Below, in pieces: positions 24,001 through 30,000 of a stretch of 64,000 nucleotides of DNA; within the stretch, counting starts at the first letter, position 1, and each line of letters starts with the position of its first letter. Origin of the DNA: a bacterium (GTDB taxonomy: Bacteria; Fidelibacterota; Fidelibacteria; Fidelibacterales; Fidelibacteraceae); contig OY781066.1 in the NCBI GenBank assembly GCA_963676395.1, positions 1,344,001 to 1,408,000 of the forward strand. Reading direction: 5' to 3'. Made by a program: the position numbers.

Positions 24001-27000
24001 TAACATTTCTTGTTGAAAATACACGAGGAAAGCTTTCATTGCTGATACAGATATAGGGATAAGATTTATCATCTTTCAACATGATATTGTACCGGGGCGT
24101 ATATTGTTTAATGAGATTGTTTTCAAGAAGCAGAGCTTCAACTTCGGAATCTGTGATAATCCATTCTATATCTGCAATTTTTGAAACCAATACTTGTGTT
24201 TTAGGGTCATGAGTATTTGATCTAAAATAAGAACGTACTCGATTTTTAAGTGATTTTGCTTTACCAACATAGATAATTGTACCGCTTTGATCGTGGTAAA
24301 GGTAGACTCCGGGCTTATCCGGAACAATTTTTAACTTGTTTTCTATGACGTGCATCACACTTTTCTCCGACCCGTTTGCAAGGTGTCCCTAAAATTCATA
24401 CATTTGGAGCAGAAATGCAAATAAAACAGGCAGCGGAAGACAGAATATGGAGGAGCGACGAAAAGGACGAATTTTTTTACATAAGATTAACGGTAAACTT
24501 AGTGCTTGTCAGTAAGACTTAATCTCAAGTTTAATCTTAATACTCAGTTTCATACAACCCAATAAACGAAAGGAGGGGGATATGTATAGGAACTCAGCAA
24601 ACAGGGTGATCCTTGTGGGTCATATTGGTAATGAACCGACAATTCACACTCTGAAAAACGACCGGAAGGTCTCAAATTTTTCACTTGCCAGTAATTATGG
24701 TTGGCGTACTCCAAAAGGAGAGTATCAAGATCGGACCGATTGGCATCGTATTGTCTGCTGGGGTAATCTCGCCGAATATAGTCGAAAGATGCCCAAAGGT
24801 CAGCAGGTATTTGTGGAAGGATCTTTGCGAACCCGGGAGTGGGTAGATCAGGAAAACAAGAAGCATTATATCACGGAAGTGTATGCTGATATGTTAACTC
24901 CTTTAGGCAAGCGCAAAGATAAAGAACAAGAAGGTGCTGAAGCGAACCCTGAGGATAAGACCGGAGAAGAGGTACCCTTCTAGAGTAATCAATCACAGAG
25001 ATGCGGTTTTCCGCATCTCTGTGAAGTTGTTGCGAAGAAGTAAAAATTAGTCGGTAAGTAGAAAGTAAATTAGAGTGAGTATGATATCTAACAATTCATG
25101 GTTTTGAAAATTTGATCGTTAATTAGAAAATTTTTGAATTGGTTTGTGGATTGGAAAATATTCTGAATCTTTTGTTAGTAAATTATGTGCTATTTTTTAT
25201 GAAGTTTTTGAAATAGACCTTGGGTTGAATTTTGTTTTAAACATTAAAATAAAACTTTACTTACTACCGACTATCCTCAAATACCCCACAGCACATGAAA
25301 TTTTGCGCTGCTAAAGTCTTCTTGACTATCTAAGCCGAGTGCAAGGGTAAGTTTATTATTTCCGGTAGGGATAGAGATTCCAAGTCCAAAATGATGCAGG
25401 CTTTTATTGATACCATTGATGATCGCACCATCGTAAAATAGAAAAATGTTCATATCTCTAAAATATCCGCTTTCTAATGACCAACCTAGGTATGCAGGAC
25501 TTATGTATTGTTCAAAGTAGGCACCTCGTAAAAATCTGGCACCTCCCAGTTTGTATTGATCGTAATTTGCTATCGGGTTTTCGGATATGGCATAAGCTCC
25601 CATTAGCTTTACATTGATCCCCAGAAGGGGACCTCGATATTTTAGGTTTGCTTCAATATTATTTTTTGAGATCCGGTGTTGATTGGAAAAATGCAGTGAC
25701 GAATTAGCGTAAATGTGAGCATTGATCTTACCGGGTTTGGAATACCAGTTAATTCCAACTTTTGAGGCGCTGCGGTTTTGTGTTGTGAATAAAGAATCTG
25801 AGCCATCTTCTGAAGAACCGATATATTCATTGATGTAGTTTATTGAAAGAGTGGATCGTTGATCAATGTGATATAATAAAGATAGATCAAGATCCCGCTT
25901 TACATATGAACTGTCCTCATATCGCTGTGAGAATGCTACGGATGCTGAAAATGAGCGATTGAAAATATAGGGTTCGGTATAAGATAGGTCGATGCTGTTT
26001 ACCGCCAAGGTTGGTTGGGACCAATGAAAGCTGGCACTACGCCCAAGTCCACCTAGGTTAATTAGGTCAAGCGCTAGATTTCCTACAATGCCTTTTGAGT
26101 CTGTTTCTTCTTTATATGCCGCCATTGCATCAAAGCGGATATTTTGTTTTGCTTTAGTATACAAGCGAAGACCATTGTTATAAATATCGGCTTTATCATT
26201 AACCTCTATCAGAGGATTGCTTTTGAGCTCTTCAATCATATTCATGACAGAATTATAATGGAAGTGCCCATCTTCCGGCAGGTCGATGTAGCGGGATAAG
26301 AGACCGACCTCTCTTTGCGAATAATCTCCAAAAACAACCGTGTCAATTTGAACTTGCTCACCTTTGTTTAAACGATAATGAAAATATTCATTTTCATTTA
26401 TTTTATTATAAGAGTCAAAAATAAGCTCAGTGAAAGGATACCCTTTATTCCCTGATTGTAAAAGATAGTTATTTAAATGTAAATCCAGTTTATCCTGTGT
26501 TTCAAATTGTAAGCTATCATTTTCAACGATCAAAAAGTAGGTTGGCGTGGCACTTAAAAAGCTTACGCTTATCATTAAAAATAGAATTATATATTTCAGT
26601 CGGTGTTGCTTCATTTAGAAATATGCCTTTACTTCTACATTTGCGGTCAAGATAGCTTTTTGTTCTGCTCTTTTCCTATATTGTAAGAAAGAACCTGCAG
26701 ATAGAAATTGATTGATTCGTTTTTCGTAACGGACTGCCGTTGACCAGGACAAGCCAACAGGTAAACCGTTTGCGGTTTCATAGGGTAGCGCCCCGCTATG
26801 ATCCGAACTGACAAAATCGATAGTTGTACTTATAAAGAGTCGTTCACCTGCAATTCGATACCAGATCCAATCGTTTTTAATTTGGAACCAATCTGTTGAA
26901 AAGTTGCTTTCGTGATCTGTGATTATATGTTCAAGCTTGGTATCTATCGAAGCTCGTAAAGTTTTTGAAAACAGGTATTCACATTCAAGGCCAACACCAT

Positions 27001-30000
27001 TTGAAAGTGTTTTAACGTGATAAGTGCCTACGGGTAACCGTTGCCTGTCTTGTTGTTCGTTTAAATAATACACATTGAGGGTCAGCTTATCTGGTTTAAA
27101 TCGGTATTTTATCTGGGTATTTGTTTTAATATTAATGTTTTCGTTATAGGTTGTTTGGAAATTTTGCGACTGAATATCTTCTCGTAAAATACTAAAACGA
27201 TGTTTACCATCCGGTCGTGAGAAAAGCAGTTCGTGTCGTAATCTTATATTGCCAAGAAATACTGAAGTATCGGGATCATTGAGATCAAGTGGGTGATAGA
27301 GCAGTAGATCCTCGGACCTGAAATCTGTTGAGGCTTTATGAAAGAATTGAAGTTTTAATGTCTTCCATTGTTTTTTCCATTTAAGCGATGAGCTTAACTT
27401 GCTTACATATTGGTCTCTGCGTTCATTGGTGAGTTCGGAGCTTAATATAAAGTTCCCCATCTCATCCGGGACATACTGTCCGAATTCATCTAAGCGGTAG
27501 TAACCGAGTCCATCGCCAACAAAGATAAATACGGCTTCGCGTTTTGATTCGGAATTTCTATTAATAGCTGATTTAAGTGATGCTTTTATACCTGGTTTTT
27601 TAAGATATATATTAAGCTGAGTATTTGTTAGTATGTACTGCTGGGCACCTGCCTCTCTTTGGTCATAGCGATACGATGCTGTCGTGTTCCAGCGCAGAGC
27701 ATTCTTGAAAAAACCTTGGTCGAATTTAAGGGATGCATCATGTTTCCGGGAATAAGATAAAAAGCTTGAATCTGCACTTGACCAATTATAATCATTTCTA
27801 TAGGTATAATCTAAACTCCAGATACCTAAGGTGACGCCGCTTTTAAACAATTCGGCCCGATAAGCCTTAGCTGATGTAAAGATGGGCTCAAAATTATCTT
27901 TAAGAAATGATGCGTGAAAGCTTAGTGATTTTGCAAGCGGTACTTGTGTACTTAATTCATAGCTATAATAGGGGAGTAGTACGCTTTTTAACAAGTTGGA
28001 GCTTTTAAGGCTTATACTGGCATCCTTGATGTTTATTTTTGCCTTGTTATTCAAGCGAACTCTTTTTTCATCCTGAGTGTTTACAAGATATTCAACAGCA
28101 CTTTGTATATCGAAGTCCTTATTGTTGAATGCTGCGTTAAGGTTTATATTTTGAATAAAAGTATCCAGGCTTGAAAATCCAAAGTATCGTTCCATATCCG
28201 GTTGCGTGATTGTCATAAAGGATCGATAATTTTGATCCATGTACCAACCATCAGATGAAATAGTCAGGTTTTTTCCGATAGGAAGTGCCGTATCCCATTT
28301 GAATGCCGGGGAGACTTGGCTTTGCCTTGAATCGTAATTATTTTCATTATAACCCGAATAAGCTGCATCGATCAAAGCATGTGCGGTATTTTTTTGTCCC
28401 AGTTCAACATTCATAGATGCTATCCAATGGGTATTGGGTAAGGTGATCTTTCGTCTTGGAAAATATTGTGATAAAGGATCTTCGGGAGCGTAGGTGTAGA
28501 ACATTTTTCCTTCGGCTGTATACTGCCTTATATAACCGCCATTAGTATTTTCTCTATAGAAGTATACGGTATGGGATCCCTGGTCTTCTCCGACATAAAC
28601 CCATGTATTGCCGGAAGCATCATAATCTCCTGAAGTATCTTTAAGTGCGGTAGAGATGGTAAATATTCCGTCTGTGGTAGAGATGTTCGATAAAGAATCT
28701 GATGAAATATTTGCCAGATGAATATCTAGGGGGTTATTTTCATCATCTTTTTCCCGAATATATGATGCGGAAATTTTTACATTTTTCCCAAAACGCCAAG
28801 ATGAGTTGGCACCCATGGATGAACGGGAAAAGAATTCATTTACATAATTAAATTCTGCAACAATCCGCGATGATGATGCGATTAAAAGCTCAGATGAAAA
28901 GTATAATTCCGCATCGCTGTAGTACAATGTATACTGAGATCGTTCAAGCAGTGTACCATCAATATAGATCTTTTCGGATTCCGGTACGATTTGGATCGCA
29001 TTATCACCATCGTTACCATGAAGACGGTAAGGACCTTGATCGGCTTCTCGGGCTGTGATTTCTTGTCGGATATATTTACCTCGAGCCGATCCGACAAACG
29101 CCTCACCACTATAGCGTTCACCCTTATATGCTGTTTGAGCACCGATTAATTTGCGGTTAAAGCGACTCCAATAACTCCATAAAGGGTTGATATAGATATC
29201 TCCGATATTTGCATCCAATTTATCGGAGTAAATTCTGATAAGTACATTGTCGACATCTTTTACCGATTGTGTGGACGAATAATCATCAAAGGGTGCATCA
29301 TTGTCATTGATTACACCATTAATTTTAACGCCGGGCGCCAATTCGCCGTTAAGGCGTATATCTAAACCTCCGCTGAGTAGGCTTTGTCCAGATGATCCGA
29401 TCTCGATCTTTCGGGAAACCGATCCACGTGTTTTAATACTTGAGCTTTCACCGGTTTTTCCTATGCTTTTGCTTTCTTGGGAAGGAAACCATTCATTAAT
29501 TTGCCCAATTCCAAGTGATCGTTTTTTTGGGGCCGAGATCTCAGAATAATGGTATTTGACGAATATTGTATCATTGTTATGAGGGCTTTGCAAGAGGATG
29601 AGTCTGCCATTCGTTGGATCACTGATATAATTAAGGCCATCGGGAACCGAAATGGAATCAATGGAGATCATAGCATGAGAAAGAGAATAGATCGTTCTAT
29701 CTGTAGAAAGCAGGAGTTGTTCGGAATGCACACCTCCGAAGGTAAAAGTAAATAGTAGACTACAAAGAATGATCGGTAAAAATTTTCGGACTGTCATGGC
29801 AGGTAATGTATGGCTCCATCTCGAGTGATCACGCGATATGCCGAAGTTGAGGGTTGATCGACGTAAATTACATGTTCAATATCACCTAAATAACGAAGCA
29901 AATCGCTATGGGGTTTCCATAAAAATATGCTATTGTTAGAGGTAAGAATAAACCCTTGTTCAGTTAGTGGGAAAAGCCGAGAAACGCTGATGCTGTCCGG

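Follow-up and report, generated by a model that had tools for sequence, protein, structure and literature searches.

A predicted giant outer-membrane barrel with local homology to SprA, encoded between a beta-propeller and a BamA-like Omp85 protein

BamA, the universal Omp85 protein, works with BamB, an eight-bladed propeller accessory that acts as a scaffold on its POTRA arm; in TamA systems, the usual gene order is tamA-tamB. SprA/Sov is the 36-strand type IX translocon (PDB 6H3I, 8GL6; PF14349; TIGR04189), a single-chain giant barrel of the FCB group and the only solved chain comparable in size to the protein described here, which comes from the same group and is predicted to be a single-chain barrel too. 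Families of large single barrels were predicted from contact maps by Solan et al. (PNAS 2021, PMC8346858), among them family 002, with 40 strands and 1,194 homologues, and family 003, with 38 strands and 849 homologues.

We analysed a window of 64,000 nucleotides from a Fidelibacterota genome (GCA_963676395.1, contig OY781066.1, positions 1,344,001 to 1,408,000), in which three translationally coupled genes, P0003-P0001-P0002, encode one outer-membrane module. The first-pass annotation had described a two-gene pair; the barrel does have its own Omp85 protein, but an NHL propeller gene lies upstream and makes the module one of three genes. The features, given with the evidence for each, are as follows.

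29794..30678, minus strand: P0003, periplasmic six-bladed NHL-type beta-propeller (ORF, AF2, Foldseek, HMM)
29794..29797, minus strand: ATGA overlap of the P0003 stop and the P0001 start (sequence)
26615..29797, minus strand: P0001, predicted giant outer-membrane barrel, 1060 aa, about 38-40 predicted strands, unnamed family (ORF, AF2, fold searches)
29546..29734, minus strand: small beta domain of the P0001 N-terminus, residues 22-84 (AF2 secondary structure and pLDDT)
28754..28996, minus strand: SprA-shared segment of P0001, residues 268-348, motif ...SEKIYIDGTLLERSQYTLYYSDAELYF... (hhalign)
26618..26647, minus strand: C-terminal strand of P0001, KAYF end, beta-signal-like (translation and alignment A1)
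26612..26617, minus strand: TAAATG junction, the P0001 stop TAA followed directly by the P0002 start ATG (sequence)
25277..26614, minus strand: P0002, BamA-like Omp85 partner, 445 aa (ORF, Pfam scan, HMM, tree)

The barrel and its place in a conserved locus

Both ORFs named in the first-pass annotation (26615-29797, 1060 aa, and 25277-26614, 445 aa, both on the minus strand) were recovered as claimed. P0001 has the signal-peptide-like N-terminus previously noted, of the cleavable type, and the translated ORF ends in ...VEVKAYF. Pfam and NCBIfam scans at E ≤ 1 gave no family that accounts for the protein, in agreement with the earlier description. Refolding with an 86-row alignment yielded an all-beta AlphaFold2 model with a pLDDT of 87.1 and a pTM of 0.75, both higher than in the first pass (78 and 0.52). 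About 40 long strands run from residue 122 to residue 1059. They are preceded by the small N-terminal beta domain, in which Y82 is invariant or nearly so (alignments A3 and A1), and by a low-confidence linker at residues 90-117.

A characteristic C-terminal strand, the beta-signal, marks outer-membrane proteins. F1060 of P0001 is nearly invariant (alignment A1), and the KAYF-type terminus is conserved throughout the family, which comprises 5,683 cluster representatives at E ≤ 0.001, with orthologues of 1060-1190 residues. In fold searches, small porins align over a range spanning residues 122 to 1060, and this fits an arrangement in which the first and last strands lie side by side. We infer that P0001 forms a barrel of about 38-40 strands from a single chain, closure and strand number being those of one predicted model; on that prediction it exceeds every solved outer-membrane barrel in size.

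The protein had been taken as undescribed. Its family is indeed unnamed, but families 002 and 003 of Solan et al. have the same strand number, are also large and uncharacterised, and may be the same family. The available text of that paper (PMC8346858) gives no accession or taxon for either, which leaves the match unproven, and describes for them no Omp85 or propeller partner, SprA homology or type IX link.

Of 61 genomes from the window's phylum, 48 have a P0001-like barrel, and in 45 of these an Omp85 gene follows immediately downstream in the same orientation, which bears out the earlier statement that the pair is kept across the phylum. In G002 and G003 it lies within about 1 kb, and in G008 a different contig carries it. 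Adjacency was read from ORFs in 11 cases; in 34, and in both near cases, it was extrapolated from gene ends (partial matches, frame lengths). The order propeller-barrel-Omp85 holds at all 11 other-phylum loci that have a propeller gene and enough downstream flank.

Relation of the barrel to SprA

As stated in the first pass, the genome has a separate true SprA (G000:C1:1335150, just before the window; PF14349, E 1e-40, 2130-aa frame), so that P0001 coexists with it in one genome; a separate LptD_2 is also present. SprA had further been reported as the best structural match of P0001 among 48,161 chains. This did not survive the better model: 6h3i_A now ranks 18th by Z (Z 14.4, 687 residues aligned, rmsd 8.3), behind 16-18-strand porins with Z of 15-17 over about 280 residues. 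The 687 residues aligned to SprA are nevertheless the longest alignment of the search, and the top Foldseek row is SprA 8gl6_A (E 3e-8), yet with a TM score of only 0.25.

The likeness to SprA stands on other ground. Comparison of alignment A1 with a 10-sequence SprA alignment by hhalign gives a probability of 96.1% (E 3.1e-9) over 81 columns, whereas control alignments of Omp85 and NHL proteins give 0.2% and 1.2%. The P0001 family is most highly conserved in the shared segment (residues 268-348), which matches residues 629-714 of the genome's own SprA and maps to about 688-780 in the solved Flavobacterium johnsoniae SprA. Judged by profile-profile comparison, and not by fold ranking, the local homology is real, and it spans 81 of the 1060 residues.

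P0001 is a half-size distant relative of SprA and distinct from it. Family members have 1060-1190 residues compared with about 2100-2500 in SprA and, being half as long, P0001 would lack most of SprA's extra-barrel mass. It has 38-40 predicted strands rather than 36, and matches none of the SprA family models in Pfam and NCBIfam. It also has its own Omp85 protein and propeller; to our knowledge, SprA has neither as a dedicated partner. When the genome's own proteome was scanned with the P0001 family HMM (E ≤ 10), no second protein matched.

A BamA-like Omp85 partner and an NHL propeller

P0002 has a signal peptide, no lipobox Cys and, by alignment, space for two POTRA domains ahead of its barrel. 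Its best Pfam Omp85 match (E 0.024) is below the cut-off, so Pfam does miss it, as had been noted. An HMM built from out-of-phylum partners matches P0002 with an E of 1.9e-29 from HMM position 140 on. Across lineages, partners have 445-600 residues and 2-3 POTRA domains, and R363 and G364 of the loop-6 R-G motif, conserved as in BamA, are invariant or nearly so.

The first-pass annotation had called P0002 TamA-like, and this holds for size, most lineages having a TamA-sized Omp85 with about three POTRA domains. By sequence, however, the partner family profile matches PDB BamA chains over POTRA3-5 and the barrel with an E of 5e-42 to 1e-27, and TamA chains far more weakly (E 1e-15 to 4e-9); no TpsB chain is among the 60 PDB matches listed. 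One P0002 orthologue matches the NCBIfam BamA model TIGR03303 with an E of 1.5e-52. In a tree, 23 partners including P0002 form a single clade (SH-aLRT 99) apart from 10 other Omp85 proteins (BamA and paralogues), and also from the genome's own 787-aa BamA. On this evidence, P0002 is a divergent BamA-derived Omp85, TamA-like in size only. It differs from BamA in that it co-occurs with one particular barrel.

Partners also differ from TamA systems in having no TamB or AsmA-like neighbour gene and, lacking a lipobox, they are not TamL. Those of Bacteroidota resemble Fjoh_0402, the orphan 'TamA' of Flavobacterium johnsoniae, which in the available text of Giovannercole et al. (2025, PMC12045153) has a plain signal peptide, no adjacent TamB and a distribution over only part of the phylum.

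A large all-beta protein next to a TamA-sized Omp85, whose earlier fold match was TamA, could suggest a TamB-TamA type translocation and assembly module in which P0001 is a periplasm-spanning AsmA-like beta-groove mis-modelled as a barrel. We disfavour this and consider it very improbable, since P0001 has no TamB, AsmA or DUF490 match (E ≤ 1), a cleavable-type signal peptide, an outer-membrane-type aromatic C-terminal residue conserved family-wide and a confident barrel model. The partner clade, moreover, is separate from other Omp85 paralogues and without the TamL lipobox, and the genes for barrel and Omp85 run in the opposite order to tamA-tamB.

The P0003 ORF opens at GTG 30678; the true start, with a signal peptide behind it, is likely ATG 30579. 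Its AlphaFold2 model (34 rows) has a pLDDT of 93.6 and a pTM of 0.86, and the best Foldseek matches are the NHL domains of Brat, TRIM2 and Thin (TM 0.68-0.71). A Pfam scan of P0003 was blank, and an HMM built from 12 upstream NHL genes of other phyla matches it with an E of 7e-7. The propeller is encoded with the partner, comparable to BamB for BamA, but is six-bladed and of NHL type where BamB is eight-bladed. Among other-phylum loci, 13 of 80 keep the propeller gene upstream of the barrel; none was found in the three Bacteroidota genomes searched.

Co-occurrence with type IX secretion and possible roles

Outside Fidelibacterota the barrel had been thought widespread alone, with no Omp85 partner in Bacteroidota. 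This applies to adjacency only: among 151 Bacteroidota genomes, 101 have both barrel and partner, none the partner only, 48 neither and two the barrel only; in these two the barrel is divergent and no partner could be detected. Each of five 'solo' (unlinked) genomes encodes one full-length partner orthologue elsewhere (E 1e-95 to 1e-143), the second-best Omp85 scoring no better than E 1e-28. All five also have SprA, together with 86-150 CTD-tail proteins. Across the 151 genomes as a whole, barrel and SprA occur together in 103, SprA only in 17, the barrel only in none and neither in 31, such that the barrel is found in 0 of 31 SprA-less genomes.

These counts suggest a tie to type IX secretion, which does not need the module, absent as it is from 17 of 120 SprA-bearing Bacteroidota genomes and from 13 of the 61 Fidelibacterota genomes. 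The counts take genomes regardless of kinship, so that Fisher p values computed from them exaggerate the association, and the nesting of the barrel within SprA-bearing genomes may reflect only shared loss in a few reduced lineages.

Taking the conservation, co-occurrence, BamA-likeness, local SprA homology and propeller fold of the trio, we tentatively favour a wide conduit related to SprA, served by a propeller accessory and by a BamA-derived Omp85 as its dedicated insertase or partner. P0001 would most likely form a very wide conduit through the outer membrane. P0002, which has two POTRA domains where its counterparts in other phyla have about three, would be its obligate partner, most likely an insertase reserved for folding this unusually large protein into the membrane, and could remain bound thereafter. 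P0003 would be a periplasmic accessory to both, either as a periplasmic plug or, in the manner of BamB with BamA, as a scaffold for the POTRA arm, and would be dispensable in Bacteroidota, where none was found. We know of little precedent for a BamA paralogue dedicated to a single client, and the co-occurrence of barrel and Omp85 fits a permanent functional complex equally well.

In such a hetero-complex, by analogy with TamA-TamB or TpsB-TpsA, the Omp85 would be a working subunit beyond its part in assembly, and POTRA arm and propeller would take a periplasmic substrate and pass it to or through the barrel. Barrel and Omp85 are one-to-one and each single copy, and their translational coupling suggests matched stoichiometry. 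The three proteins of the window's family are jointly divergent, each missing its Pfam model where orthologues elsewhere match at E 1e-10 to 1e-41, as expected of co-evolving contacts; 6 of 11 partner orthologues scanned show weak ShlB/FhaC matches (PF03865, E 8e-6 to 3e-4). We nonetheless regard this arrangement as unlikely, the partner's closest relative being BamA, an insertase type, with TpsB missing from the listed PDB matches. P0001 also has no TPS or TamB/AsmA domain, and the propeller, missing from the three Bacteroidota genomes searched, cannot be an essential receptor there.

The neighbourhood bears on whether the module serves export at all. No type IX gene adjoins it at the 13 operon-type loci annotated (61 neighbours scanned); around it stand genes of housekeeping and envelope biogenesis (RNase R, Lgt, YidC, RlmD, UvrC, SSB, PlsC, NlpC/P60, UppP). 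At 10 of 80 loci a co-directional sensor kinase with a huge periplasmic domain abuts the module, with a GT4 glycosyltransferase downstream in three of these, and most genomes lacking the module are small (1.8-3.1 Mb). All this would suit an envelope housekeeping or uptake device with no part in protein export or type IX secretion, such as a very large porin, a polymer channel or an outer-membrane lipid or lipoprotein homeostasis factor, its nesting in SprA genomes reflecting common descent and a free-living lifestyle. Against this, the local homology of P0001 is specifically to SprA and none of the 31 SprA-less Bacteroidota genomes has the barrel, and we consider such a device improbable. With the wide conduit and its dedicated insertase as the preferred account, the module's probable role is in export or surface biogenesis, in parallel with SprA and not as its replacement. 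Together, the three genes have the look of an outer-membrane machine not described before, in bacteria that possess type IX secretion as well.

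The operon and its predicted giant barrel

Three genes lie head to tail as ORFs on the minus strand of the window and encode an NHL propeller (P0003), a predicted giant barrel (P0001) and its Omp85 partner (P0002):

29794–30678, minus strand: P0003, NHL propeller, 294 aa counted from GTG; the ATG at 30579 is the likely true start and is followed by a signal peptide
26615–29797, minus strand: P0001, barrel ORF of 1060 aa
25277–26614, minus strand: P0002, Omp85 ORF of 445 aa

The stop codon of P0003 and the start codon of P0001 overlap as ATGA, and the TAA stop of P0001 is followed directly by the ATG of P0002; the trio is therefore almost certainly one translationally coupled operon. 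Downstream lie an SSB gene on the opposite strand and then UvrC and YgjP-like genes, and upstream is a phosphorylase-family gene on the opposite strand. A promoter and terminator scan of the locus returned many consensus matches, with a sigma-70 pattern that is possibly unsuited to the host's group.

The ORFs reproduce the coordinates that the first-pass annotation gave for the barrel and the Omp85 protein, and its statements that they belong to no family are likewise confirmed: the three proteins all fall short of the Pfam and NCBIfam cut-offs, and the sole relevant trace is a match of P0002 to Pfam Omp85 (PF01103) at E 0.024.

The N-terminus of P0001 resembles a signal peptide, and its C-terminus reads ...VEVKAYF. 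Through a word-indexed search, 101 relatives were identified, all named 'hypothetical protein' and with no precomputed Pfam domain; about 30 carry Marinimicrobia-type names (1026–1067 aa, 33–68% identity), and about 70 are from Bacteroidia and allies (1040–1270 aa, about 20% identity). An exhaustive profile search extends this to 5,683 cluster representatives (50% identity) at E ≤ 0.001, with 2,966 at E ≤ 1e-30 and the top 150 full length (1096–1210 aa), a large family yet one without a name, a Pfam entry or an NCBIfam entry. No longer or fused relative scored when sought at 1856–5000 aa, which is weak evidence. The family HMM matches only P0001 itself in its own proteome at E ≤ 10, so that no paralogue was found, and a PDB sequence search with the barrel profile gave 0 matches at E ≤ 10.

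An AlphaFold2 model of P0001 from an 86-row alignment reaches pLDDT 87.1 and pTM 0.75, clearly above the earlier model. It comprises a small N-terminal β domain (residues 22–84), a low-confidence linker (90–117) and long strands that run unbroken from 122 to 1059, with two short-stranded insertions at about 250–310 and 360–452. DSSP gives 38 or 40 long strands, depending on whether two bulged pairs are merged. In an all-against-all structure search, porins of 16–18 strands align over about 280 residues to the model range 122..1060, consistent with a single closed sheet in which the first strand lies beside the last. P0001 is thus predicted to form one barrel of about 38–40 strands, a number that is the model's answer rather than a measurement; if the model is right, the barrel exceeds SprA in size. 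A reading as LptD was rejected, since P0001 matches no LptD model (PF04453, PF19838) and the genome has a separate LptD_2 (E 5e-72, 1238-aa frame).

From contact maps, Solan et al. (PNAS 2021, PMC8346858) predict 'a superfamily of large OMBBs', in which family 002 has 40 strands and 1,194 homologues and family 003 has 38 strands and 849 homologues; a 2022 preprint (10.1101/2022.10.09.511469) repeats the claim. The P0001 family may well be one of these two, compared by strand number only (38–40 in both); the accessible text and supplement of Solan et al. contain no sequences or accessions for either family. A 2026 preprint (10.64898/2026.03.07.710327) still gives SprA as the largest known barrel.

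The Omp85 partner and the propeller

Close relatives of P0002 (35–69% identity) are all 356–458 aa long and all from the same phylum. An HMM of nine proteins from the same operon position outside the phylum, all of which pass Pfam POTRA and Omp85, matches P0002 at E 1.9e-29 from HMM position 140 of 589, which suggests that the first POTRA of the roughly 590-aa cousins is absent and that there is room for two. All 11 partner orthologues scanned match PF01103 (E 1e-10 to 1e-25) and 10 of the 11 match PF07244 (E 1e-16 to 8e-27). Sequence homology places P0002 in the Omp85 superfamily, with putative POTRA domains ahead of a putative 16-strand barrel domain.

The first-pass annotation had called this protein a TamA-like Omp85; the superfamily stands, but by sequence the partner is much nearer BamA. 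A 22-row profile of the partner family finds BamA chains in the PDB at E 5e-42 to 1e-27, spanning POTRA3–5 plus the barrel, and TamA at only 1e-15 to 4e-9. Against NCBIfam, a partner orthologue matches BamA (TIGR03303) at E 1.5e-52, TamA at 7e-12 and TamL at 9e-4, all below cut-off (for TIGR03303, 179 bits against a cut-off of 297).

BamA proper has five POTRA domains and is the universal, essential copy, while in the TAM system TamA or TamL is paired with TamB, TamL carrying a lipobox cysteine. P0002 was rejected as BamA proper. Its genome holds six Omp85 matches, counting the five besides P0002, and these include a separate 787-aa BamA; TIGR03303 stays below cut-off, and the partners fall outside the BamA clade. 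In a quick maximum-likelihood tree, with several long-branched rows and no bootstrap, a single branch (SH-aLRT 99) separates 23 partners from 10 other Omp85s. The 23 comprise P0002, partners linked in operons in other phyla and unlinked Bacteroidota partners; the 10 are made up of the BamA clade and other paralogues. Reading the barrel and its partner as a TamB–TamA pair is highly improbable: the adjoining P0001 has no TamB/AsmA match, the partners carry no lipobox Cys, and the TamA and TamL models stay far below cut-off. In a comparison with two-partner secretion, in which a transporter of ShlB/FhaC type adjoins an exoprotein that carries a TPS domain, PF03865 (ShlB/FhaC) matches 6 of 11 partner orthologues weakly (E 8e-6 to 3e-4), Pfam finds no TPS domain in P0001, and the C-terminus of P0001 is of the OMP type. 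Outside the window, at 1958107–1959027 of contig C1 of the same genome (G000), an Omp85 match lies within a 1098-aa open frame, much longer than BamA.

A Pfam scan of P0003 gave no match. AlphaFold2 with 34 rows returns a confident six-bladed propeller (pLDDT 93.6, pTM 0.86), whose best Foldseek matches are the NHL domains of Brat (1q7f), TRIM2 (7b2r) and Thin (6xg7), with TM 0.68–0.71; on this model, we assign P0003 as a predicted NHL-repeat six-bladed β-propeller. An HMM of 12 NHL genes in the same position outside the phylum finds P0003 at E 7e-7; in many further genomes of the phylum, it finds the gene upstream at E 1e-23 to 1e-48. Since this HMM scores two of the genome's other NHL proteins above P0003, we base the orthology of P0003 on its position and fold and not on its score.

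Our leading interpretation, which we hold tentatively and at a little under an even chance, is that P0002 would act as a private insertase of the P0001 barrel, that P0003 would serve as a periplasmic accessory and that the barrel would form a wide conduit working alongside SprA; the mechanism is inferred. A different arrangement, in which the Omp85 protein is a permanent working subunit together with the barrel, fits the translational coupling of the trio. In the window's family, all three proteins have drifted together beyond the Pfam models, unlike their orthologues elsewhere, which hints at co-evolving contacts. We consider a permanent subunit possible, though on balance unlikely. Complex prediction for P0002 (residues 23–445) with P0003 (21–261), each with an alignment, scored 0.00 against a mark of 0.32, which is no evidence either way.

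Conservation and co-occurrence of the module

The barrel is present, always in single copy, in 48 of 61 sampled genomes of the window's phylum, Fidelibacterota. Coordinates put a partner-type Omp85 gene immediately downstream, on the barrel's strand, in 34 of the 48, with partial matches and frame lengths used to extrapolate the gene ends, and a reading of the DNA found an abutting downstream Omp85 in all 11 genomes missed by the narrow profile (profile A4, E 1e-34 to 1e-89). Overall, the pair is adjacent in 45 genomes, on the same strand within about 1 kb in 2 and on separate contig fragments in 1, so that its retention across the phylum, as first proposed, is borne out. RNase R usually follows the module, and Lgt or an NHL gene usually precedes it. 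In one family of the phylum, an Rce1-like CAAX protease of 239–245 aa stands upstream of the barrel in the propeller's place (loci L124:1249–1986, L128:6772–7491 and L134:642–1361).

Outside the phylum, GTDB species genomes were scanned for a pattern from a 13-row alignment subset; at least 600 stretches matched, of which 544 were confirmed and the best 80 kept. In 13 of these best 80 loci, with labels of KSB1, Ignavibacteria, 'Cytophagia' MAGs or unnamed bacteria, an NHL gene lies directly upstream of the barrel; these positional orthologues of P0003 match PF01436 at E 4e-22 to 2e-41. Omp85 is directly downstream in all 11 NHL-bearing loci with enough downstream DNA, with a methyltransferase between in one. 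Upstream of the NHL gene, KSB1-type loci also have a conserved 167–180-aa protein that belongs to no NCBIfam family (L039:5031–5543, L040:5026–5550, L042:5020–5562, L060:5246–5749), followed by NlpC/P60 and RlmD on the opposite strand; an RlmD-like gene occurs in the window as well, at 15650–17056 on the minus strand. The other 67 of the best 80 loci (labels Flavobacteriales, Chitinophaga, Sphingobacteriales, Bacteroidales, Melioribacteraceae and Chlorobiaceae) have no partner within roughly 5 kb.

Ten of the best 80 barrel loci, all with Bacteroidota labels, have a sensor histidine kinase of 1190–1260 aa directly upstream on the same strand (L069:2895–6593; also L064, L068, L076, L081, L095, L098, L102, L106 and L117), sometimes with a one-base overlap with the barrel gene. 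Its C-terminus comprises sCache_3_3, HAMP, HisKA and HATPase_c, and its N-terminal part of roughly 800 aa has no Pfam family or PDB-sequence match. A GT4 glycosyltransferase lies downstream in three of the ten.

The first-pass annotation took the barrel to stand alone outside the phylum, and this does not hold. Each of five genomes whose barrel locus has no adjoining Omp85 encodes exactly one full-length partner orthologue elsewhere (E 1e-95 to 1e-143, 568–608-aa frames), with a plain signal peptide and no lipobox cysteine; the next-best Omp85 scores E 1e-28 or weaker with the partner profile. The distance between orthologue and barrel gene is 6 kb in Lishizhenia. Among 151 Bacteroidota genomes at least 90% complete, with a partner threshold of E ≤ 1e-40, the barrel occurs in 103 and the partner in 101; 101 have both, 2 the barrel only, 0 the partner only and 48 neither. 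Fisher p values for this association overstate the case, being computed without regard to kinship among the 151 genomes. In six of the Bacteroidota genomes, the two genes are about 6 kb apart on one contig. The two barrel-only genomes (G156 and G082) have a divergent 1013–1047-aa barrel next to purD (L155:4868–7909 and L156:4656–7799, respectively) and no Omp85 nearby, or genome-wide at E ≤ 1e-40. We conclude firmly that, in several phyla and for linked and unlinked genes alike, a BamA-derived Omp85 is tied one-to-one to the barrel.

Co-occurrence of the propeller is less faithful than that of the partner. An unlinked orthologue is present in two of the five genomes without an adjoining Omp85, those labelled Melioribacteraceae and Chlorobiaceae (E 8e-51 and 2e-61), and none was found in the three Bacteroidota genomes searched. 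As a whole, the original finding is real and richer than stated, with a propeller gene added and the co-occurrence of unlinked partners.

Giovannercole et al. (2025, PMC12045153) describe an orphan 'TamA', Fjoh_0402, that has a plain signal peptide and no TamB neighbour, is shared by 11 of 30 Bacteroidota species and can be deleted. These properties match those of the barrel's Omp85 partner, a likeness by description only, and the module offers a candidate function for this orphan 'TamA' of some Bacteroidota.

Relation to SprA and type IX secretion

SprA (Sov) has about 2100–2500 residues, a 36-strand barrel and large added domains, and acts together with PorV, Plug and the remaining parts of a type IX secretion system (T9SS). 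P0001 (1060 aa; relatives 1013–1237 aa) is about half as long as the SprA frames of the same genomes (2018–2764 aa), matches no SprA model of Pfam or NCBIfam (PF14349 SprA_N, TIGR04189) at E ≤ 1, and coexists in one genome with a true SprA. That separate SprA, which the first-pass annotation had listed, is confirmed at E 1e-40 with PF14349 in a frame of 2130 aa, which lies some 30 kb upstream and just beyond the window.

P0001 had been described as SprA-like on the ground that SprA was its best structural match. With the better model, a wide structure search is led by porins (Z 15–17), and SprA 6h3i_A comes at rank 18 (Z 14.4, rmsd 8.3), although its alignment, at 687 residues, is much the longest. 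In Foldseek the top match is SprA 8gl6_A, but with a TM of 0.25 and in the company of MtrB, LptD, SlpA and TbpA. Such a ranking is what any very large modelled barrel would give and is no proof of likeness to SprA. The likeness stands on another footing. Comparison of the P0001 family alignment with a SprA alignment by hhalign (10 sequences: the genome's own SprA, 3 from its phylum and 6 from genomes of the other-phylum loci or the Bacteroidota sample) gives Prob 96.1% and E 3.1e-9 over 81 columns, a local match only, between residues 268–348 of P0001 and 629–714 of the genome's own SprA. The same query gives Prob 0.2% against the Omp85 alignment and 1.2% against the NHL alignment. The shared segment (consensus G-T-E-K-V-Y-I-D-G...D-Y-x-I-D-Y) is the most conserved part of the P0001 family and maps to about residues 688–780 of the solved F. 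johnsoniae SprA. We regard it as firm that P0001 carries this conserved, SprA-specific segment, and the local profile homology supports a relationship to SprA.

In the same 151 Bacteroidota genomes, SprA (PF14349) occurs in 120; 103 have both SprA and barrel, 0 the barrel only, 17 SprA only and 31 neither, so that all 103 barrel genomes carry SprA. In the window's phylum, 59 of 61 genomes carry SprA, the exceptions being two that are 65% and 88% complete, and so do all 13 that have no barrel; the five genomes without an adjoining Omp85 all have SprA and 86–150 CTD-tail proteins. Since the barrel occurs only with SprA and SprA also occurs without the barrel, the module is nested in the T9SS-bearing set and dispensable for T9SS. 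In the genomes sampled, it is confined to those with type IX secretion.

The gene neighbourhoods favour another explanation, that the module has no relation to T9SS and serves the envelope as a housekeeping or uptake device: among 61 neighbours scanned at 13 operon-type loci, none is a T9SS component, and housekeeping genes surround the module. The CTD-tail proteins found close to it (window 36582–39666; loci L089 and L042) do not exceed what chance predicts for genomes with 86–150 such genes. Set beside the confinement to T9SS genomes, a housekeeping or uptake role appears improbable to us.

As one exception among the loci, a T9SS-dependent M6-like protein lies 3 kb upstream of the module in L050. 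Further features of the window were noted:

36582–38330, plus strand, and 38497–39666, minus strand: proteins with type IX C-terminal sorting domains, one an M28 peptidase, which confirm that the organism uses T9SS
17202–19466 and 19683–21566, minus strand: neighbouring proteins of 754 and 627 aa, each with a terminal CBM_5_12 carbohydrate-binding module; one has an LVIVD repeat, and no family accounts for the remainder
44580–45680, plus strand: ORF of 366 aa; G+C is 0.283 at 44001–46000, against about 0.38–0.43 around

The trio is a widespread, unnamed outer-membrane module of three parts (two in Bacteroidota), namely a predicted 38–40-strand SprA-related barrel, a dedicated BamA-like Omp85 and an NHL propeller, and we rate it with known kinds, namely giant translocon-type barrels and Omp85 assembly factors. 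No paper on the trio, its co-occurrence, a half-size SprA relative or an NHL–Omp85 operon was found in a literature search that extended to sources other than subscription journals. A bolder reading, which we think doubtful, is that the trio would be a self-contained second protein-export pore of FCB bacteria: a minimal 38–40-strand translocon older than or parallel to SprA, from which kind of barrel SprA would have grown by domain addition, served by a private BAM with a truncated BamA paralogue and a propeller in BamB's stead. If this were true, P0001 would be the widest single-chain membrane pore known and the first outer-membrane protein to bring its own dedicated assembly machine.

Between about two thirds and four fifths of the Bacteroidota and Marinimicrobia-type genomes sampled carry the family. 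With a BamA paralogue linked one-to-one to one giant barrel, the module would bear directly on how the outer membrane receives and folds very large barrels, and would reveal if BAM-like machines can be specific to one client. Through its local homology to SprA and its nesting in T9SS-bearing genomes, the barrel provides a concrete starting point for asking how the type IX translocon arose and whether there may be a second export route.
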